Assembly: GCA_033765235.1 (NCBI GenBank)
Contig: JANRIG010000020.1
Coordinates: 56,105-120,104, forward strand
DNA length: 64,000 nt
Direction: 5' to 3'
Source: Cytophagales bacterium
Lineage (GTDB): Bacteria; Bacteroidota; Bacteroidia; Cytophagales; UBA9547
Shown here: piece by piece, positions 2,569 to 10,782 of the stretch
Position numbering within the stretch: position 1 is the stretch's first letter
Layout: every line of letters begins with the position of its first letter
Position numbers and translations under genes: made by a program
The notes under the pieces: model-generated
What the model was told of the DNA's origin: nothing
Database searches by the model: none
The model's input: the letters and a program-made list of their open reading frames with translations, nothing else

Positions 2569-3417
2569 ATGAGAAATGAGATAAACCAGCGGTTCATTCA
2601 TTTTTTATACAAAAATCATCATGAAGAATGGGTGCCTACGCCTTTTCCTGCCGATGCCATCAAGTGGCTTAAGGATTTGTTAGAATATCTTTTTCCAAAT
2701 ACTTTTTTACCAAATATTTCACTTTATGAAGGGTTGTTGAAAAAAAACCAAATTGATATTGAAAATATTTTGCTGAGCTATCTCAATCATAAAAATTTTG
2801 AAATTGAAAAAACCGTAGATGATTTTTATGCTTCTCTGGAACAGATATATATCAACTTAAGAAATGATGCAGAAGCTACGGTAAACAGCGACCCTGCCGC
2901 TACGAGCATACATGAAGTAATTGTGTCATATCCGGGTTTTTTTGCAACTGCGGTATACCGTATAGCACACAAGCTAGCAAACTTAGGCGTTCCCATATTA
3001 CCCAGAATACTTTGCGAATATGCCCATGCAAATACAGGAATTGATATTCACCCCAATGCAGTTATTGGTGTACCTTTTGTGATTGACCACGGTACAGGGG
3101 TTGTAATTGGCGAAACCAGTATTATTGGTAACAATGTCACTATTTATCAAGGGGTTACATTAGGGGCATTGCATGTAGAAAAAGGACTTTCTGATACCAA
3201 ACGACATCCAACAGTTGGCGACAATGTCATTATTTATGCAAGAACTACTATTTTGGGGGGCAATACCGTTATTGGCGATAATTACATTATTGGAGGAAGT
3301 GTATTTTTAACCAAAAGTATTGAAGCCAATTCCAATGTGTTTAATACCCACCAACTGCGCATCAGTTCCAAAGACCGCAAAGTGCAAGATTACGATTTGA
3401 CGATTCAGGCTTCGTAG
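2569..3417 (+). CDS. cysE: Serine O-acetyltransferase (EpsC/CysE type)
   Basis: DPAA, YPGF, TGIDIHP, IDHGTGVVIGET, YQGVTLGA and KRHPT motifs with hexapeptide repeats. Confidence 0.9.
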   Translation: MRNEINQRFIHFLYKNHHEEWVPTPFPADAIKWLKDLLEYLFPNTFLPNISLYEGLLKKNQIDIENILLSYLNHKNFEIEKTVDDFYASLEQIYINLRNDAEATVNSDPAATSIHEVIVSYPGFFATAVYRIAHKLANLGVPILPRILCEYAHANTGIDIHPNAVIGVPFVIDHGTGVVIGETSIIGNNVTIYQGVTLGALHVEKGLSDTKRHPTVGDNVIIYARTTILGGNTVIGDNYIIGGSVFLTKSIEANSNVFNTHQLRISSKDRKVQDYDLTIQAS

Positions 3418-3649: not shown

Positions 3650-3679
3650 TTTGTATATAAAATAAAAATGCTATATTTG
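3650..3679 (+). promoter_or_regulatory. Bacteroidota housekeeping-sigma promoter (-33 TTTG / -7 TAnnTTTG) for the NTF2-sulfatase unit
   Basis: TTTG at 3650-3653, 18-nt spacer, TATATTTG at 3672-3679. Confidence 0.55.
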
Positions 3680-3786: not shown

Positions 3787-3876
3787 ATGCTCAAATATTC
3801 TTTATTCAGTCAGTACTTCATTATTATCTGTTGTTTCATTAAAAAATTTATTTGGTTTAGACCATTTTATAAATAG
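3787..3876 (+). CDS. Putative leader peptide (29 aa) with tandem Cys codons: MLKYSLFSQYFIIICCFIKKFIWFRPFYK
   Basis: ATG 3787 with A at -3, TGT-TGT at 3829-3834, TAG 3874-3876; lies between the predicted promoter and the sulfatase unit. Confidence 0.35.
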   Translation: MLKYSLFSQYFIIICCFIKKFIWFRPFYK

Positions 3877-3979: not shown

Positions 3980-4435
3980 ATGACAAAAATCATTCTTCAT
4001 TTTTCAATATTTATTTTGCTGACTTCTTGTGTAAGGGAAAGTAATACCAACCAAGAGTTAGAAGAAAGCAACAAAAAAGTGATCCTACAATTTTACCAAA
4101 AAGCTTTCAACGAGTTAGATACCAATGCCGTTGATGAATTTATTTCAGAACCTTACATTCAGCACAATCCTAATGTGCCCAATGGCAAAAAGCCAGTGAA
4201 AGAGTTGATAAGTTGGCTTGCCACCAATCAACCAAAAGGTGTAAACGAGTTTAAACGAATAATAGCAGACTCAGATTATGTGGTACTCCATGTTCGATAT
4301 GTACCCAATGATTCGGCAAATGTAGAACTGGCCTGTGTAGATATTTTTAAACTTAAAAACGGAAAGATAACCGAACACTGGGATGTTCAGCAAAATGTAC
4401 CAGCTAAGTCAGCAAATACAAATACTATGTTTTAA
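3980..4435 (+). CDS. NTF2-like / SnoaL-like lipoprotein
   Basis: Lipobox LTSC; YIQHNP and DIFKLKNGKITEHWDV motifs. Confidence 0.8.
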   Translation: MTKIILHFSIFILLTSCVRESNTNQELEESNKKVILQFYQKAFNELDTNAVDEFISEPYIQHNPNVPNGKKPVKELISWLATNQPKGVNEFKRIIADSDYVVLHVRYVPNDSANVELACVDIFKLKNGKITEHWDVQQNVPAKSANTNTMF

Positions 4436-4471: not shown

Positions 4472-6793
4472 ATGAAAAAACTTAATCTATTCAGTGCCTC
4501 CTTGCTTGGGGTGAGTACGCTCTTTGCACAATACGACCCCGTCCAACCCTGGAATGGCAAAAACGGCAAAATTTTAGCCGAATCTACCCCTTACAAAGCC
4601 GAGCCAGCGGTAAAAACACCACAAAATGCTCCTAATGTGGTCTGGATATTGCTAGATGATATAGGATATGGTGTAATCTCTCCTTTTGGAGGAGCTGTAA
4701 ACACCCCTAATTTGCAAAAACTGGCTGACGAAGGCTTGCGATACACCAATTTTCACACTACAGCTATTTGTTCGCCCACTCGTGCCTCTTTGCTTTCAGG
4801 TCGAAATCAACACTCGGCACACATGGGCTTGTTTCCTGAAACCGCCATTGATTTTCCAGGCTACGATGCCAAAATTCCTTTCGAAAAAGCACTTATTTCG
4901 GAAGTATTACGTGAAAATGGCTACAACACTTTTGCAGTAGGCAAATGGCATTTGACTCCTGTAAATGAAGCCACACAAGCTGGTCCGTTCAACCGTTGGC
5001 CTACAGGTAGGGGATTTGATAAATACTTCGGCTTTCCTTACGGACAAGTCTCACAATGGGAACCCTACCTTTGGGAAGGAACGGATGTGGTAGAACCTGA
5101 TACCAAAAATCCGGTACACTTCACCACCTTGATTACTAATAAAGCGATCAAATACATTTCTAATCAAAAATCAGTTAATCCTGACAAACCTTTCTTTTTG
5201 TATTACACACCAGGGGCAGGACACGCTCCGCATCACGTAGACAAAGAATGGATTGAAAAATACAAAGGCAAGTTTGACAATGGCTGGGATGTGTATCGCA
5301 ATGAAACACTTGAGCGTCAAAAAAAGTTAGGCATAGTACCTCAAAATGTACAGTTACCCTTAAAAACTCCGAATGTAAAACCTTGGGATTCGCTTTCGGT
5401 AGATGAAAAGAAAGTATACGCACGTTTTTTTGAAGTATATGCCGGATTTGTAGAACATACTGACTTTGAAATAGGACGCTTAATCAATCACTTGAAAGAA
5501 ATTGGCCAGTACGAAAACACCATTTTTGCTGTGGTGGTAGGCGACAACGGTTGCTCTAAAGAAGGTACTGCCAATGGGGTAATCAATGGATATATTCAGA
5601 ATTTGCCTGAGAAAGAGCGTATTGCAGAGCTGTTGAAAAACATAGACAATATAGGAAATATCAACACGCATACCAATTTCCCCTTTGGCTGGGCATCGGC
5701 CGGAAACACCCCTTTTCGCTACCTCAAGCAAGATGCCAATGCCGAAGGCGGTACTCGCAACCCGTTGATATTGAGCTGGCCAAAAGGTATTAAAGACAAA
5801 GGTACACTTCGCCATCAGTATTCGCACGTAAACAGCCTTTGGCAAACCACTGTGGATTTGACAGGCTCCAAAGTGCCAGAATACATCAATGGCTACAAAC
5901 AAGAACCTACTGAAGGTACAAGTTTGGCTTATACCATCGACAACCCCACTGCCCCAGGCAAACATACCGTTCAATATTTTGAAATAACAGGCTCACGCGC
6001 CATATACAAAGACGGCTGGAAAGCCTCAGTATATCACAAGCAAGGTGCGCCTTTTGAAACAGACGTGTGGGAACTGTATGACTTAAACACTGACTTTAAT
6101 GAGCGAGTGAACTTGGCATCTAAAAACCCTGCAAAATTGAAAGAGCTTCAAGATCAGTTTGATACAGAAGCCAAAAAGTATAACGTATATCCGCTCAAAG
6201 ATTGGAGTGCCTCGTCTTTTGGTACCAACAAAAACAGTGCCTATGTGGGCAGAAAACAAGTAGTATTATACCCAGGATTATCTCAAACATTTGGTTTGGC
6301 AGGTCCTACTTTTTGGAATGCAAGTTTTACAATTATCAGCGATGTAGAAATTTCAAATACCAACAACGAAGGGGTATTGTTTGCCTTGGGAGGTAGATTT
6401 GGGGGCTTGAGTTTGTTTATCAAAGACCATAAATTTCAATTGGCGCATAATTTGGGAACCAAAATATTCCATGTAGAATCCTCCAAAACCATACCTGCGG
6501 GTAAAGTACAATTGAAGTATGAATTTAATTTTACTGCCACACCTAAGCCACGCGGCTCATCAGTTTTTGCCCTTGACCCTAAAGAAGCCTTAGAGCCTGC
6601 AGGAAATGAAATTTTGTATATAAATGGTGAGAAGGTAGCAGAATCGCCCATTATACGTGCTCATGGTTATATATTTGGCTATGATGAAGGATTGGATATA
6701 GGTCAAGACAATGCCAGCCCTGTTTCAGATAAATACAAAACGCCTTTTGCATTTACAGGAAGTTTAAAAAAAGTAACAATTGATTTTAAATAA
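4472..6793 (+). CDS. Secreted arylsulfatase (Cys-type, formylglycine-dependent, AtsA-like long form)
   Basis: Signal peptide; PNVVWILLDD, CSPTRASLLSGR (CxPxR), GKWHL, HAPH and DNG motifs; C-terminal beta-sandwich extension. Confidence 0.93.
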   Translation: MKKLNLFSASLLGVSTLFAQYDPVQPWNGKNGKILAESTPYKAEPAVKTPQNAPNVVWILLDDIGYGVISPFGGAVNTPNLQKLADEGLRYTNFHTTAICSPTRASLLSGRNQHSAHMGLFPETAIDFPGYDAKIPFEKALISEVLRENGYNTFAVGKWHLTPVNEATQAGPFNRWPTGRGFDKYFGFPYGQVSQWEPYLWEGTDVVEPDTKNPVHFTTLITNKAIKYISNQKSVNPDKPFFLYYTPGAGHAPHHVDKEWIEKYKGKFDNGWDVYRNETLERQKKLGIVPQNVQLPLKTPNVKPWDSLSVDEKKVYARFFEVYAGFVEHTDFEIGRLINHLKEIGQYENTIFAVVVGDNGCSKEGTANGVINGYIQNLPEKERIAELLKNIDNIGNINTHTNFPFGWASAGNTPFRYLKQDANAEGGTRNPLILSWPKGIKDKGTLRHQYSHVNSLWQTTVDLTGSKVPEYINGYKQEPTEGTSLAYTIDNPTAPGKHTVQYFEITGSRAIYKDGWKASVYHKQGAPFETDVWELYDLNTDFNERVNLASKNPAKLKELQDQFDTEAKKYNVYPLKDWSASSFGTNKNSAYVGRKQVVLYPGLSQTFGLAGPTFWNASFTIISDVEISNTNNEGVLFALGGRFGGLSLFIKDHKFQLAHNLGTKIFHVESSKTIPAGKVQLKYEFNFTATPKPRGSSVFALDPKEALEPAGNEILYINGEKVAESPIIRAHGYIFGYDEGLDIGQDNASPVSDKYKTPFAFTGSLKKVTIDFK

Positions 6794-6800
6794 ATACCAA

Positions 6801-6842
6801 TTCCATACCTACTAAGTTTTTTAAAACTTGGCAGGTATGGAA
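6801..6842. repeat. 20-bp-arm palindrome resembling Bacteroidota REP-like elements
   Basis: TTCCATACCTACTAAGTTTT-tt-AAAACTTGGCAGGTATGGAA (one G-U, one mismatch), 8 nt after the sulfatase stop and 5 nt before the tRNA. Confidence 0.6.
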
Positions 6843-6847
6843 CTAAA

Positions 6848-6919
6848 GTCCCCTTGACCGAGTGGTTAGGTAACTGTCTGCAAAACAGTGTACATCGGTT
6901 CGAATCCGATAGGAGGACT
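6848..6919 (+). tRNA. tRNA-Cys (GCA) with an extra, bulged nucleotide in the 3' strand of the acceptor stem; CCA not encoded
   Basis: D-arm ACC-GAGTGGTTA-GGT; anticodon arm ACTGT-CTGCAAA-ACAGT; T-arm ATCGG-TTCGAAT-CCGAT; acceptor GTCCCCT / AGG(A)GGAC; discriminator T6919. Confidence 0.85.
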
Positions 6920-6940
6920 CTAACATTTTACTTAAACTTT

Positions 6941-7348
6941 ATGATTATGACAAAGATTAACACTAAATTTAGTTTTCCTGATTATTTGATAAACCTCATG
7001 GTAGGTTTGGTATTTCTTTCAGAAGGAATACAAAAGTGGATACTCCCCAACGAAAGAGGAGTAGGACGATTTGCTAAGATAGGAATTCCCTATCCTGAGT
7101 TTACCGGTTATTTTGTAGGAGTTACAGAAATAGTATGTGGTTTACTTGTACTGGCCACATTTAAAATCAGGTATTCAATTATTCCTCTACTCATCATTAT
7201 TGTGGTAGCCATCATTAGCTCCAAAATCATACCCTTTCCCGAAAAAGGATTGTGGGAAACCCTACATGCTTCAAGAAATGATTTTTGTATGCTCTTAGGG
7301 CTTATATACTTGGCATATAATGCCTTTTCAGTAAAAAAAATTGCTTAA
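6941..7348 (+). CDS. DoxX family membrane protein
   Basis: VGLVFLSEGIQK, GRFAKIGIP and FVGVTEIVCG motifs, about 4 TM segments. ATG 6941 (or 6947) is preferred over the TTG at 6854, which lies inside the tRNA. Confidence 0.85.
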   Translation: MIMTKINTKFSFPDYLINLMVGLVFLSEGIQKWILPNERGVGRFAKIGIPYPEFTGYFVGVTEIVCGLLVLATFKIRYSIIPLLIIIVVAIISSKIIPFPEKGLWETLHASRNDFCMLLGLIYLAYNAFSVKKIA

Positions 7349-7482: not shown

Positions 7483-7490
7483 TATATTTG
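7483..7490 (+). promoter_or_regulatory. -7 promoter element for the TonB-dependent receptor gene
   Basis: TATATTTG ending 35 nt upstream of ATG 7525. Confidence 0.45.
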
Positions 7491-7524
7491 TCGAAAATTT
7501 AAGTTGTTGAGCATCATTACAATA

Positions 7525-9969
7525 ATGAAAATCATATCAATATTTCTAATCTGTTTTGCTTCATCCCAAGTTTTTTCTCAAAGCCAAATAAAAGGAAAAA
7601 TCACTGATACATTAAGCTCCAAACCACTGGAATATGCCATAGTGAGTATTTTTAATACAAGTGATGATAAACTTGTTAACGGTAAACTCACTGACTCAAC
7701 AGGTACTTTTGTGTTTGACAAAATAGATGAGGGCAATTATTATTTGAAAATAGATCTGATTGGCTACCGAACTTCATACGTTAGGGGCATATTGATTGAT
7801 AAATCAAAAATGGTAAATCTGGGAAACATTAATATGAATGTATCATCTGCCATGCTCAATGAGGTAGAAGTTAATGCTGTGAAAGACCCAAATCAGGTGA
7901 AAATAGATAAGCAAACCTACAAGGCCGACCAATTTGAGTCTGCCAAAGGAGGCACAGCTATAGATGTATTGAAAAATCTGCCTTCTTTTACTATAAATGC
8001 GGAGGGCGATATACGACTGCGAGGCTCCGGTGGTATTTTGGTTTTAATCAATGGCAAACCTGTAAATGCTGATATCCAAACGGTTCTAAATCAAATACCT
8101 GCCAACTCTATCGAAAACATAGAACTCATCACGGCTCCTACCGCCAAATATGATGCTGATGGAAAATCAGGTATTATCAATATTACTACAAAAAAAGGCA
8201 CTACAGATGGGCTCACATTTATGGTAAATGGTCAATATGGTTTGCCAAGCGTAGACATGTACAACAACAAAGAACAACCCAAAAGATACGGTACTGATAT
8301 CACCCTCAACTATATCAAAAACAAATGGGACTTTACTTTTGGTGCAGGCTATTTGCAAAATGACATACAAGGGCTCAGAGACGGAGATGTAAATACTACT
8401 TTCAACAGCCGCTATACCACTTTTCCATCTATAGGCGAGCGAAGTTTTGACCGCAAAACCTACTCTGTAAGAGCCTCTATTACATATAATGTGAACAAAA
8501 ACAATAGCTTTAACTTTGCGGTATATCATGGGCAAAGGCAGCAGTTTCGCTTGGCCGATATTGATTACACCACTACCCGTTACATAAACGGATTGCCTGT
8601 AAGCAATTATCAATATTTCAATAACAATCTTGTCAAAAAGCAAGGCGAATTTTCGCTTGTAAATCTAGATTATACCTACACTTTTGCCAACAAATCTACC
8701 CTTAATCTTTCTGGATTGTATGAATATGCTTTTCTTGATGGATTTACTAAGAACAAAGATTTTGCTTTGGGAACCAATACTAACCCTATCAATGATATTC
8801 TAAATACAGGTACAAGCCCAATACATGGGCTGAGAGCCAAAACAGATTACACTATTAATATTGGCAAAGGCAAATTGGAAAGTGGCTACCAAATTCGTTA
8901 CCAAACCCAAACAGGAAGCTATGTATATAAAGATGTAATATTGAATTATACGACTGTAAACCAAACTGTTGATGCATATAGTGCAGACATACGCATCGAA
9001 AATCTCATCCATGGACTTTATTCTCAATATTCGGGCAAATTAAAAAAATTGGAATACACAATTGGTATGCGCTACGAACATGCACAGAGGCTCTTTACTT
9101 CAAGCAAAGGAGATAATTTTCCACTCACCTTAAACAATCTGTTTCCATCTGCCAACTTACTCTATGGCCTTAAAGAAAACGTAAAACTCAAAGGTGGTTT
9201 CAGCCGCAGGGTACAACGGTCTACCAACAATGAACTCAATCCTTATCCTGAGCGCGAACATGCCGAAACACTTGAACGTGGCGACCCTGATATCAAACCA
9301 GAATTTGTCAATCTTTCGGAATTGGGCCTCATATACGAATATAAAAAAGGCTCCGTGTTTTTTACTTTTTACAATCAATATATTGAAAACGTAGTAAACC
9401 GTGTGAACAATGTGTACAACGACACCATATTGAACAGAATATATACCAATGCCGGCAATGCTGCTATATGGGGCATAGAAGCAGGGTTTAACTATAATCC
9501 CATTAAATGGTGGAAAATATACATAGGAGGCAATATATACAATTATAATATCAGAGGCAGTTTGTTTGACAATGCAGTAACTGTAAAAAATAGTGGGTTG
9601 GCTTATTCCTTCAATACCAACCAAAATTTTCAACTCTTAAACACATTGAGTTTACAATTAAATATGAATTACCTGTCATTGAGACCTACAGCCATAGGTG
9701 AAGATTCTCGGTTTTTAAGTCCAAATATTTCTGTGAAAAAAACATTTTTAGGCGGTAAATTATCTGCTATGCTTCAATGGCAAAATATTGGATTAGGTAT
9801 ATTGCCCAGCAATGAACAGCGCATTACCACACGAGGTGCCAATTTTTATACTACCACCAATTATATCCAAGAAAAAGACGTGTTATGGATACATTTGAGC
9901 TACAACTTCAAGCAGTCCAATAAGAAAGTGAAATTGCCCGGCAGTGAATTTGGAGAAAAGGAATTTTGA
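7525..9969 (+). CDS. TonB-dependent receptor / outer-membrane beta-barrel protein with N-terminal carboxypeptidase-regulatory-like domain
   Basis: Signal peptide from ATG 7525; plug motif IENIELITAPTAKYDADGKSGIINITTKK; amphipathic beta-strands; C-terminal FGEKEF. Confidence 0.88.
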   Translation: MKIISIFLICFASSQVFSQSQIKGKITDTLSSKPLEYAIVSIFNTSDDKLVNGKLTDSTGTFVFDKIDEGNYYLKIDLIGYRTSYVRGILIDKSKMVNLGNINMNVSSAMLNEVEVNAVKDPNQVKIDKQTYKADQFESAKGGTAIDVLKNLPSFTINAEGDIRLRGSGGILVLINGKPVNADIQTVLNQIPANSIENIELITAPTAKYDADGKSGIINITTKKGTTDGLTFMVNGQYGLPSVDMYNNKEQPKRYGTDITLNYIKNKWDFTFGAGYLQNDIQGLRDGDVNTTFNSRYTTFPSIGERSFDRKTYSVRASITYNVNKNNSFNFAVYHGQRQQFRLADIDYTTTRYINGLPVSNYQYFNNNLVKKQGEFSLVNLDYTYTFANKSTLNLSGLYEYAFLDGFTKNKDFALGTNTNPINDILNTGTSPIHGLRAKTDYTINIGKGKLESGYQIRYQTQTGSYVYKDVILNYTTVNQTVDAYSADIRIENLIHGLYSQYSGKLKKLEYTIGMRYEHAQRLFTSSKGDNFPLTLNNLFPSANLLYGLKENVKLKGGFSRRVQRSTNNELNPYPEREHAETLERGDPDIKPEFVNLSELGLIYEYKKGSVFFTFYNQYIENVVNRVNNVYNDTILNRIYTNAGNAAIWGIEAGFNYNPIKWWKIYIGGNIYNYNIRGSLFDNAVTVKNSGLAYSFNTNQNFQLLNTLSLQLNMNYLSLRPTAIGEDSRFLSPNISVKKTFLGGKLSAMLQWQNIGLGILPSNEQRITTRGANFYTTTNYIQEKDVLWIHLSYNFKQSNKKVKLPGSEFGEKEF

Positions 9970-9999: not shown

Positions 10000-10782
10000 A
10001 TGAAAAAAGCAAGTTTTAATCTTAATATATTAGACGTATATATATTCATATTTTCCATTTCAATTATTCTTTTTTGTTCTGTAAATAATGCAATTGCCCA
10101 AAAAAATGTCACAAACCGCACCCAAAGTTGGGTTGGATACTTTAATCAAACCAGAATTTCTAACAAATTTGGCTTTTGGCTCGATGTTCATTTCAGAAAC
10201 TTAGATATTGCTCATCCACACCAAACCTTGGTAAGGCCTGCATTTATTTTTTATATCAACGATAATTTCAGACTCAATGCAGGATATGCCTATGTCTATA
10301 ACTTTGCACCTGAAGGCCGAAATTCTTCATTTCAAGAACATCGCCCGTGGCAGCAACTTTGGTGGCGCACCAAATACCCGGGTTTTGTAACCACCCAGTG
10401 GCTCCGTGCCGAGCAGCGTTTTGTAGAAAATGTGGTAAATGACCAACTCACAGGCGATTTTACATTTAATCACAGATTTAGGTATAATTTGTTTTTACAA
10501 GTACCTTTAATAGGTAAGGATATGAAAGCAAAAACACCTTATTTTGCCCTACAAAATGAAATATTCATCAATGCCGGCAAAAATATTGTTTACAATGTAT
10601 TTGACCAAAATAGGTTTTTTGTAGGGTTTGGATATTACTTCACCGACCACTTGCATATACAGCTGGGCTATATGAATATCTTTCAGCAAAGACCCTCAGG
10701 AAATGAATTTTACAACAATGATTGTATCAGGTTATTTGCATTTCATACACTTGATTTTCGCAAAAAAGAAGAAACACATTAA
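10000..10782 (+). CDS. DUF2490 family outer-membrane beta-barrel protein
   Basis: EHRPWQQ, RxEQRF, RFRY and FDQNRFFVGFGY motifs. Confidence 0.8.
   Translation: MKKASFNLNILDVYIFIFSISIILFCSVNNAIAQKNVTNRTQSWVGYFNQTRISNKFGFWLDVHFRNLDIAHPHQTLVRPAFIFYINDNFRLNAGYAYVYNFAPEGRNSSFQEHRPWQQLWWRTKYPGFVTTQWLRAEQRFVENVVNDQLTGDFTFNHRFRYNLFLQVPLIGKDMKAKTPYFALQNEIFINAGKNIVYNVFDQNRFFVGFGYYFTDHLHIQLGYMNIFQQRPSGNEFYNNDCIRLFAFHTLDFRKKEETH

Follow-up and report, generated by a model that had tools for sequence, protein, structure and literature searches.

Bacterial elongator tRNAs are thought to hold a strict acceptor helix of 7 bp, because their partners (RNase P, the CCA enzyme, the aminoacyl-tRNA synthetases, EF-Tu and the ribosome) each recognise this helix. 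A cysteine tRNA gene that departs from this rule stands among sulfur-scavenging genes in a stretch of 64,000 nucleotides from a Cytophagales bacterium (Bacteroidota; GTDB lineage UBA9547; assembly GCA_033765235.1, contig JANRIG010000020.1, positions 56,105 to 120,104), here referred to as the window. The gene, termed tRNA-Cys* throughout, has one adenosine too many in the 3' strand of its acceptor stem, which raises the question of whether it is a flawed or stray copy or a tRNA with a purpose of its own. As judged from the comparisons given below, tRNA-Cys* is very probably a real member, maintained by selection, of a conserved class of tRNAs. The fuller reading that we favour, which appears to have a somewhat better than even chance, is that it is a functional and selected auxiliary tRNA-Cys, induced by sulfur limitation and raising the tRNA-Cys pool of the cell.

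The tRNA-Cys gene of the window and its canonical counterpart

The only tRNA detected by ARAGORN in the window is tRNA-Cys(gca) at 6848-6920. ARAGORN, Rfam and direct reading together place the gene at 6848..6919 on the + strand, as are all window features given below, with G1 at 6848, the anticodon GCA at 6880-6882, U73 at 6919 and no encoded CCA. The Rfam tRNA model RF00005 matches 6849-6918 with 45 bits against a gathering score of 29, which qualifies the gene as a tRNA. The 5' acceptor strand, GTCCCCT (6848-6854), is followed by U8 and G9, and the 3' strand, AGGAGGAC, has 8 nt (6911-6918) before U73; 7 nt thus stand opposite 8 nt, and the uninterrupted 7-bp acceptor of a 7/5 branch is absent. 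Seven of seven Watson-Crick pairs are formed only if A6914, which lies between tRNA positions 68 and 69, is bulged out, and all four stems are then paired. ARAGORN, which cannot model a bulge, proposes instead an 8-bp acceptor with one C.A mismatch and one U.G pair, consuming U8. The remaining parts are regular: the D stem is ACC/GGU with G13.A22 (the canonical tRNA-Cys of the same genome is arranged alike), the anticodon stem is ACUGU/ACAGU with the loop CUGCAAA, the variable loop has 4 nt, and the T stem is AUCGG/CCGAU with the loop UUCGAAU. GCA and U73, the combination expected of a bacterial tRNA-Cys, are both present; they are given as the main identity elements for cysteinyl-tRNA synthetase (CysRS) in PMC5389517.

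An earlier note on this DNA had described the extra adenosine, the seven pairs, U73 and GCA, and had placed the tRNA 21 nt before a DoxX gene, behind a spacer devoid of the promoter motif TAnnTTTG. Direct reading, pairing and a motif scan bear out each of these statements: the DoxX ATG is at 6941, 21 nt beyond the end of tRNA-Cys*, and the spacer 6794-6847 contains no exact TAnnTTTG, the nearest sites on the + strand being at 6670 (within the sulfatase gene) and 3672. Co-transcription with the sulfatase gene upstream, as also suggested there, is plausible. Between the sulfatase stop and the 5' end of tRNA-Cys* lies a stable hairpin of 18 bp (6801..6842; -22.3 kcal/mol by RNAfold; z = -7.5 against shuffles), which is not followed by a U tract and may protect a 3' end or terminate transcription.

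The assembly (39 contigs, 3.36 Mb, 38% G+C) contains 39 tRNA genes according to ARAGORN, two of which are tRNA-Cys. The canonical copy, on contig C12, has a regular 7/7 acceptor and U73 and is located directly behind rpsA (ribosomal protein S1). It is 60% identical to tRNA-Cys* and differs from it in G+C content (58.3% vs 50.7%) and in its RF00005 score, 54.9 bits, compared with 34-51 bits for the 29 tRNA-Cys* loci scanned, all of which are above the gathering threshold. Two doubts raised earlier, that tRNA-Cys* might be the sole tRNA-Cys of the genome or a remnant of an integration site, are thereby settled: a second, canonical copy exists, and a gene fragment is rejected in view of the full-length cloverleaf and the 60% identity along the whole length. 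A canonical tRNA-Cys was also present in nine of nine tRNA-Cys* carriers checked, and it stands behind rpsA in four genomes; a fifth, G189, mirrors G217 and was left out of the scan. All five carriers checked for CysRS have a single one, and a dedicated second CysRS was not found in any of these five.

Compared with canonical tRNA-Cys, tRNA-Cys* shares the cloverleaf, the CUGCAAA loop, U73, the 3-bp D stem with a purine mismatch at 13:22, the 4-nt variable loop, the 5-bp T stem and the lack of an encoded CCA. It differs in the extra A, the faster-evolving stems and the lower Rfam scores, and also in location, the canonical gene following rpsA whereas tRNA-Cys* occurs in sulfur-poor operons that appear to be conditionally controlled.

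Several other unusual tRNA genes were encountered. In G825, two tRNA-Cys genes lie one after the other with 12 nt between them (L202:6916-7072): a regular one, whose T loop is UUCAAAU, and a bulged tRNA-Cys*. A sister class, in which the acceptor begins with an A1.G72 mismatch, comprises additional tRNA-Cys genes in G020 (L051:917-988(-)) and G061 (L156:906-977(+)), each located immediately behind a sulfur-poor open reading frame (ORF), namely a 403-aa pyridoxal-phosphate enzyme of Cys/Met metabolism (0 Cys/1 Met) and a fragment of a TonB receptor (0/0). A clustered tRNA-Cys of Roseivirga pacifica (L131:6842-6912) has GTCGGA(T) opposite TCCCGAC, its 3' strand seemingly one base (C) too long. 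The tRNA-Cys 3' halves at L114:57-89 and L118:6583-6615 have no matching 5' half and are probable integration-site remnants, unlike tRNA-Cys*. On contig C8 of the window's genome, outside the window, ARAGORN calls a tRNA-Ser(cga) of 99 nt (240281-240379), whose anticodon stem is rich in G.U pairs and whose extra arm is very long; it may be atypical or a false call.

Recurrence and conservation of the bulged adenosine

Is the extra adenosine peculiar to this gene? For the comparison, a gene was classed as tRNA-Cys* if it has GCA and U73, if the third base of its 3' acceptor strand is followed by an additional A within seven compensated pairs, and if the genome contains a canonical copy as well. 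The gene of the window has all of these features, and its location in an operon with marks of sulfur limitation also agrees with the class. The same extra A is found in 15 reference genomes (14 besides that of the window) of at least three families and on at least 15 metagenome contigs, in every case together with GCA and U73. It was first seen again in a metagenome-assembled genome of Ferruginibacter, in which GGTCATG stands opposite CAT[A]GACC with the A in the same place; this was among the 80 matches listed of the 89 obtained with a pattern for tRNA-Cys with the same T arm, one genome being searched per species.

A full-length IUPAC pattern was then applied, which prescribed conserved letters of the loops and how far a 'TC' lies from the T loop, and left the pairing and the extra base free. 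At up to one mismatch, 81 of 401 genomes in a sample of the order matched, yielding 73 regular tRNAs followed by CC and 8 tRNAs with the extra A. At zero mismatches every match of the genome surveys carried the extra A: 7 of 41 genomes (4 of 16 genera) in family f16, 2 of 401 genomes in a sample of the phylum, and 5 of 201 genomes in family f25, which belongs to another order. A looser pattern for f25, with the anticodon and D loops wholly free and five T-loop letters and U73 fixed, matched 6 of 201 genomes, and the anticodon loop was CUGCAAA in 6/6. The metagenome scan gave at least 120 loci, at least 105 of them regular tRNA-Cys of other phyla and at least 15 with the bulged A; no other bulge position or base occurred among the metagenome matches listed. 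These counts may understate the class, the patterns being narrow in that letters of the D arm and T loop were fixed.

The stem around the bulge varies in sequence and keeps its pairing. Six acceptor sequences were found (GTCCCCT, GGTCATG, GGTCCCG, GCTCCAG, GGTGGAG and GGCGGAG), each opposite its exact complement plus A. In an alignment of 14 sequences, the bulged model places 98.8% of the cells in standard pairs, with the acceptor helix and the T stem both 100% paired, and six of the seven acceptor pairs, including all three below the bulge, are changed on both sides. None of 500 shuffles reached the observed pairing values, and sliding the partners abolished the signal. The bulge column is A in 14/14 aligned members, as is the extra base, at the same place, in all metagenome cases listed. 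A tRNA-Sec-like register with an 8-bp acceptor was tried and rejected, just 63.5% of the acceptor cells being paired across the alignment. On this alignment, tRNA-Cys* is a member of a conserved class whose 7-bp acceptor would be perfect but for an additional adenosine inserted between positions 68 and 69.

These data bear on the suspicion of an assembly error as the source of the extra A, or of a pseudogene in decay. The species is represented by one assembly, and the Rfam score of the gene falls short of the canonical one (45 vs 54.9 bits); the insertion, however, lies outside a homopolymer, all stems are intact, and the identical feature occurs with compensatory changes in at least 29 other independent assemblies. 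This recurrence, in independent assemblies and in other lineages, rules out sequencing error and decay, so that the probability of this explanation is negligible, and it also removes the earlier reservation that the extra A might be an error or specific to one strain.

The gene of the window is the most divergent member of the class, with 60-74% identity to other tRNA-Cys* and likewise to canonical tRNA-Cys. Its acceptor sequence, GTCCCCT, was present in no other record searched (genomes and metagenome contigs), and an exact stretch of 33 nt had no match in metagenome contigs. When the tRNA and its flanks were compared by BLASTN with 61 relatives, 40 genomes matched, and of 29 loci fetched besides that of the window's own genome, 28 contained a regular tRNA-Cys and one contained none. 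A scan of viral contigs gave nine matches, all of them tRNA-Cys with regular acceptor stems.

Sulfur-poor neighbourhoods and their probable control

What surrounds tRNA-Cys* in other genomes? The flanks of 12 further reference-genome loci and of 13 of the 15 metagenome loci were annotated. The neighbours include sulfatases, NifS-like and encapsulin cysteine desulfurases, SfnG-like monooxygenases, an O-acetylhomoserine/O-acetylserine (OAH/OAS) sulfhydrylase, MetNIQ, peroxiredoxins and an Rrf2 regulator. Typically, the tRNA gene follows an Rrf2 regulator and a TonB receptor, or stands behind or ahead of a SusC-SusD pair; it also occurs between SusD with an M14 peptidase and a RimK-like gene with a SfnG-like monooxygenase, between a NifS-like desulfurase and VIT1, between a desulfurase with a thiol-disulfide oxidoreductase and SusC, and between an AhpC-like gene and a flavin oxidoreductase. 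In a further arrangement, a sulfatase 49% identical to that of the window is found beside tRNA-Cys*, which is followed by a 1-Cys peroxiredoxin and the OAH/OAS sulfhydrylase (metagenome contig L306). Among 71 neighbours of tRNA-Cys*, the median cysteine plus methionine content was 1.8%, and among 34 proteins encoded next to the canonical tRNA-Cys of these genomes it was 3.2% (Mann-Whitney p 1e-5, with genomes related by kin); related genomes were counted as if independent in these statistics, which are therefore overstated, and ORF calls were crude, with ATG starts only. Many of the large neighbours lack cysteine altogether, among them TonB receptors (845-856 aa, with 2 Met) and an M14 peptidase (897 aa, with 1 Met). 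Sulfur-related genes were absent from the 34 canonical neighbours (0/34).

Two observations were made on individual neighbours. The AhpC/TSA-family proteins at L204:7099-7713(-) and L211:645-1286(+), with lengths of 204 and 213 aa, contain neither cysteine nor any internal methionine, which is odd for a fold whose chemistry is normally cysteine-based. A Flavo-1 RNA (RF01705, 59.7 bits) lies downstream of the SfnG-like gene at the G792 locus (L203:3820-3903(-)).

The control regions point in the same direction. A loose genome-wide scan for Cys-rich small ORFs had returned mostly noise, and strict criteria were used instead: an intergenic ATG-ORF of up to 70 codons whose last six codons include an unbroken run of three or more Cys codons. 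Eight such leaders were found on the tRNA strand in the 29 tRNA-Cys* loci (252 kb), compared with none in 105 canonical metagenome loci (457 kb) and two in 39 canonical Bacteroidota loci (174 kb). They end in ...VMCCCR, ...VMCCCC, ...AMCCCCC, ...AMCCRCCCC, ...INCCC, ...SSCCCL, ...GCCCCSLH and ...ACCCCTFCQV, and are located at L204:7820-7894(-), L306:7212-7313(+), L302:968-1129(-), L315:7062-7163(-), L250:12621-12758(-), L239:4758-4835(+), L248:1293-1400(+) and L295:1574-1660(-). Their 3-5 Cys codons, often preceded by Met, are placed just ahead of sulfur-poor genes or beside the tRNA, and the ORFs look like cysteine-codon attenuator leaders; we know of no cysteine-codon leader among the textbook examples of attenuation. 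Both leaders in the control loci precede another auxiliary tRNA-Cys, without a bulge, in genus g2 of the same family as the window's genome. These mini-operons (L003:1081-1565 in G017 and L007:1082-1566 in G020) consist of a leader ending in ...DFCCCCR or ...DSCCCCC, an ORF of 89 aa with no Cys, no Met and no Pfam match, and, 6 nt on, a tRNA-Cys with a regular acceptor.

S-adenosylmethionine (SAM) riboswitches (RF00162, 72-86 bits) lie upstream on the same strand in 3 of the 29 tRNA-Cys* loci and on the opposite strand in one more. At L235:1658-1890, a SAM riboswitch (82.5 bits) stands behind a TAnnTTTG box, and tRNA-Cys*, the sole gene, begins after a spacer of 51 nt that contains a weak hairpin and a U tract, an arrangement that looks like a riboswitch governing a tRNA gene. 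Taken with the neighbours and leaders, a tie between tRNA-Cys* and sulfur limitation appears quite likely.

The arrangement of the loci also invites a reading in which tRNA-Cys* is cis-acting, tRNA-like punctuation: RNase P and 3' processing would cut the operon RNA, the upstream message would keep a protective hairpin, and the released RNA would have no role. Genes on the same strand flank tRNA-Cys* on both sides in 10 of 14 reference-genome loci, compared with 3 of 10 canonical copies; the gap from the upstream stop codon is often 10-50 nt; and stable 5' hairpins are somewhat commoner than before canonical copies (median z -1.5 vs -0.8, p = 0.015, the kin not being independent). As a defining part of the element, the upstream hairpin was rejected, the enrichment being weak and many loci lacking it. 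Processing, moreover, would need neither GCA nor U73, yet the CUGCAAA loop and tRNA-like D and T loops persist, despite changes in every stem, in 6/6 of the f25 matches to the looser pattern, in which U73 was fixed; the retention of the anticodon makes a pure processing signal unlikely. The specific link to cysteine and sulfur sensing is equally unaccounted for, and in L235, where tRNA-Cys* is the only gene behind the riboswitch, there is nothing to punctuate. This reading is therefore improbable.

The sulfur setting that the earlier note had recognized at the window itself not only holds but has become stronger, through the sulfur-poor neighbours and through the Cys-run leaders and SAM riboswitches of relatives. 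The gene belongs to a same-strand island headed by a SAM riboswitch (RF00162, 71.6 bits) at 43375-43596 of contig C8, about 12.5 kb before the window (L338:876-1097). Nine nt after the riboswitch comes a 32-codon leader ORF ending in ...FSCCCY, which heads a sulfatase-type SusC/SusD locus that runs into the window; of the six strict leader matches in this genome, it alone has a sulfur-poor gene within 400 nt. There follow a 67-aa ORF, a 321-aa protein, a formylglycine-generating enzyme, SusC, a SusD-like protein, an arylsulfatase, a hydroxylase-like protein, a DUF4395 protein, a YeiH-like transporter, the shell of a family 2A encapsulin (from 2, cut by the window start; NF041162, 356.6 bits for the part in the window, below the 380-bit cut-off for the whole protein), its cargo cysteine desulfurase with a 250-aa N-terminal extension (649-2559; NF041166, 890 bits) and serine acetyltransferase (SAT; 2569-3417; TIGR01172). 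In Synechococcus, a family 2A encapsulin and its desulfurase are described as induced by sulfate starvation (PMC8049743).

Behind a gap of 560 nt lie a SnoaL-like protein (3980..4435; Pfam PF07366), probably encoded by the first gene of the local transcription unit, the 773-aa sulfatase (4472..6793; PF00884) directly upstream of tRNA-Cys*, tRNA-Cys* itself, a DoxX-family membrane protein (6941..7348; PF07681), a TonB-dependent-receptor-like outer-membrane protein (OMP) of 821 aa with 1 Cys/9 Met (7504..9969; PF14905, PF00593) and a sulfur-poor DUF2490 protein (10000..10782; PF10677); prolyl-tRNA synthetase (ProRS) and a DeoR regulator come next. A DUF2490 homologue with 37% identity (BLASTP) is located downstream of tRNA-Cys* in G382 as well. 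The motif TAnnTTTG, which we take to be the -7 element of Bacteroidota, has an exact match within the 560-nt gap, at 3672..3679 (TATATTTG), a candidate promoter for the unit formed by SnoaL, sulfatase, tRNA-Cys* and DoxX. Another exact match, at 7483-7490, lies 14 nt ahead of the TTG start of the OMP gene, whose true start may be further downstream. A Cys-Cys leader had also been proposed at 3787-3876: the 29-codon ORF MLKYSLFSQYFIIICCFIKKFIWFRPFYK, about 100 nt before SnoaL, does contain two adjacent Cys codons, but these lie in the middle of the ORF, which falls below the strict Cys-run criterion and is a weak candidate, far less clear than the leaders of relatives and the one at the head of the island.

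Against 2095 ORFs of the genome, the Cys plus Met content is at or below the first percentile for SusC (0 Cys/2 Met), the SusD-like protein (1/1), the arylsulfatase (2/2), SAT (1/0) and the 773-aa sulfatase (2/1), the last two being at percentile 0.00 to two decimals. The OMP is at the 3rd percentile, the cysteine desulfurase at the 4th, DUF2490 at the 6th and the encapsulin at the 8th, with the YeiH-like protein within the 3rd-8th; the hydroxylase-like protein and SnoaL are at the 13th-14th and DUF4395 at the 48th, and ordinary contents are found in ProRS (59th), DoxX (61st) and DeoR (90th). A low Cys/Met content is described in PMC8557817 as a sulfur-sparing trait of proteins made under sulfate starvation.

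The same island bears on a further explanation, that tRNA-Cys* was acquired horizontally or with a mobile element and landed together with DoxX, with no tie to sulfur. In G013 the sulfatase gene is joined directly to the OMP orthologue, tRNA and DoxX both being absent, which means either an insertion here or a loss in G013; DoxX, unlike its neighbours, has an ordinary Cys/Met content; and the lower G+C of tRNA-Cys* and its unique acceptor would suit a foreign origin. No integrase or repeat was seen, however, among the annotated neighbours, the viral matches all had regular acceptors, and other lineages have the same oddity in operons of this kind, in one case next to the 49%-identical sulfatase. 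An origin of this kind is very improbable.

Possible roles and comparison with known tRNAs

What, then, would such a gene do? As part of a sulfur-scavenging unit, and not of the housekeeping unit of rpsA and tRNA-Cys, tRNA-Cys* would be made when sulfur, cysteinyl-tRNA or SAM is low. It would be expressed by read-through, released from the mRNA by RNase P and 3' processing, charged by CysRS through U73 and GCA, and used by the ribosome. The housekeeping copy behind rpsA would presumably be turned down with growth, as ribosomal protein operons generally are. A larger tRNA-Cys pool would allow the single CysRS to draw scarce cysteine into translation, at a time when the scavenging proteins being made are nearly free of Cys and Met. 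The bulge may tune the handling by CysRS or EF-Tu, or shorten the lifetime of the tRNA. Because genes of the A1.G72 sister class occupy comparable positions, it is probably the weakening of the acceptor helix that matters. Among the four functions offered earlier (a starvation-induced auxiliary tRNA-Cys, a carrier or decoy outside translation, a feedback element for the leader, and a tRNA-like processing signal), the first seems to fit best, and the other three are less likely. That tRNA-Cys* simply adds decoding capacity has about an even chance.

A number of points weigh against this auxiliary role. The window's copy is the most divergent of the class; with its acceptor sequence found in no other record and identities of 60-74% to both groups, it may or may not share common descent with the other members. 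The closest orthologues of its sulfatase (G013, G020) have no tRNA beside them, and in 13 other genomes none of 19 sulfatase-orthologue loci fetched contained a tRNA. In G317 and L251, tRNA-Cys* stands behind the phosphate transporter PstSCAB, in G825 it lies 12 nt behind a canonical tRNA-Cys, and in G061, G825 and G775 the neighbours have ordinary Cys/Met contents. The strong hairpin just 5' of the gene, present here and in about one third of the loci, in some with U tracts, could terminate transcription. A plain need for more tRNA-Cys leaves the conservation of the bulge unexplained, and induction by sulfur limitation is a deduction from DNA sequence.

The conserved bulge, which needs a reason, leads to another reading, in which tRNA-Cys* is made under sulfur limitation and acts outside bulk translation, its acceptor keeping it from EF-Tu and the ribosome, as a sensor, a decoy, or a cysteine donor or carrier. 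As a sensor or decoy, for example, the uncharged tRNA could hold ribosomes on the Cys-run leaders or feed the stringent response. The A1.G72 class lies in the same kind of place, behind the 403-aa enzyme with 0 Cys/1 Met and the 0/0 receptor fragment, and tRNA-Cys* adjoins Cys-run leaders, twice between the promoter-side genes and the leader. Specialised, non-proteinogenic tRNAs that bypass the ribosome reportedly exist in cell-wall synthesis (PMC2175331). On the other hand, the annotated surroundings of tRNA-Cys* showed neither a tRNA-dependent transferase nor a second CysRS, nor yet a special elongation factor; the D-loop GG, the T loop and the anticodon loop are those of a working elongator, although the search patterns dictated most of these features and only the looser one left the anticodon and D loops unconstrained; and the auxiliary tRNA-Cys of g2 stands in the same kind of leader-controlled unit with no acceptor defect. 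A role outside translation is rather unlikely. It is similarly doubtful that the acceptor defect, be it the bulged A or the A1.G72 of the sister class, marks a dedicated regulatory or diverted tRNA switched by SAM riboswitches and Cys leaders, and a feedback on sulfur sensing, for example by stalling ribosomes on Cys-run leaders or by announcing starvation in the uncharged state, or else the carriage of cysteine away from EF-Tu for sulfur sparing, is a tentative suggestion at best.

Which known tRNAs does the auxiliary tRNA-Cys* resemble? The earlier note had likened it to selC* tRNA-Cys. According to Mukai et al. 2017 (PMC5389517), the variable arm of selC* tRNAs is long and their anticodon and acceptor stems are lengthened; their branch is 8/4, their bulge lies in the T stem, at 51a, and their hosts are anaerobes with selenocysteine machinery, sometimes with selB* and cysS*. 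The two are alike in being an additional tRNA-Cys beside a normal one, with U73, GCA, one bulged A and a non-canonical structure (PMC5389517). They differ in that tRNA-Cys* has a 7/5 branch with an acceptor bulge, a short variable loop, one CysRS and hosts in the phylum Bacteroidota. The comparison fails as an identification, and selC* is rejected in view of the 4-nt variable loop, the 5-bp anticodon stem and the fully paired 5-bp T stem. As to the company of selB* or cysS*, no second CysRS was found in five carriers and neither gene was among the annotated neighbours in the window, selA, selB and selD not having been searched genome-wide. An allo-tRNA is likewise rejected: these tRNAs have long variable arms and 8/4 or 9/3 branches (PMC7609411), and tRNA-Cys* has no such branch or arm and no tRNA-Sec-like D arm.

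Other likenesses are of behaviour. The bldA tRNA-Leu of Streptomyces is a conditionally expressed tRNA, and with such specialised or conditional tRNAs tRNA-Cys* shares its nature as an extra isoacceptor, with an idiosyncratic structure or regulated expression, in a particular physiological state. It differs from them in that no partner transferase was found, that a nutrient, sulfur, would be the trigger, and that an acceptor bulge is its mark. The bacterial initiator tRNA has a 1:72 mismatch, a conserved acceptor defect that alters which factors accept it. A conserved acceptor defect is common to both, and the sister class has A1.G72; the Cys anticodon and the internal bulge set the window's tRNA apart. 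The cognate-codon-rich short ORFs and RF00162 elements ahead of tRNA-Cys* operons resemble leader attenuation and SAM-I riboswitch control, except that the controlled unit contains, and in L235 consists of, a tRNA gene. A search of openly available text, aimed at such a tRNA, brought up no report of a tRNA-Cys with an acceptor bulge, nor of a tRNA-Cys or other tRNA gene under sulfur control in Bacteroidota, neither subscription journals nor the supplementary lists of minor tRNA-Cys species in PMC5389517 being within its scope; the class is apparently undescribed.

The retention of the bulge through many compensatory changes indicates that a deviant acceptor helix can be selected, and it provides a natural test of what the partners of a tRNA tolerate. 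For annotation it follows that bulged tRNA-Cys genes should not be dropped as pseudogenes, and the combination of sulfur-poor proteins, Cys-run leaders and tRNA-Cys* offers compact marks for sulfur-limitation regulons in uncultured Bacteroidota. If the regulatory reading were true, tRNA-Cys* would be the first nutrient-controlled regulatory tRNA of its kind, and L235 the first riboswitch known to us to govern a tRNA gene. The setting suggests that Bacteroidota may match tRNA-Cys supply to sulfur status via SAM riboswitches and Cys-run leaders, which would add a new layer to the way these abundant bacteria of soil and water respond to sulfur starvation.

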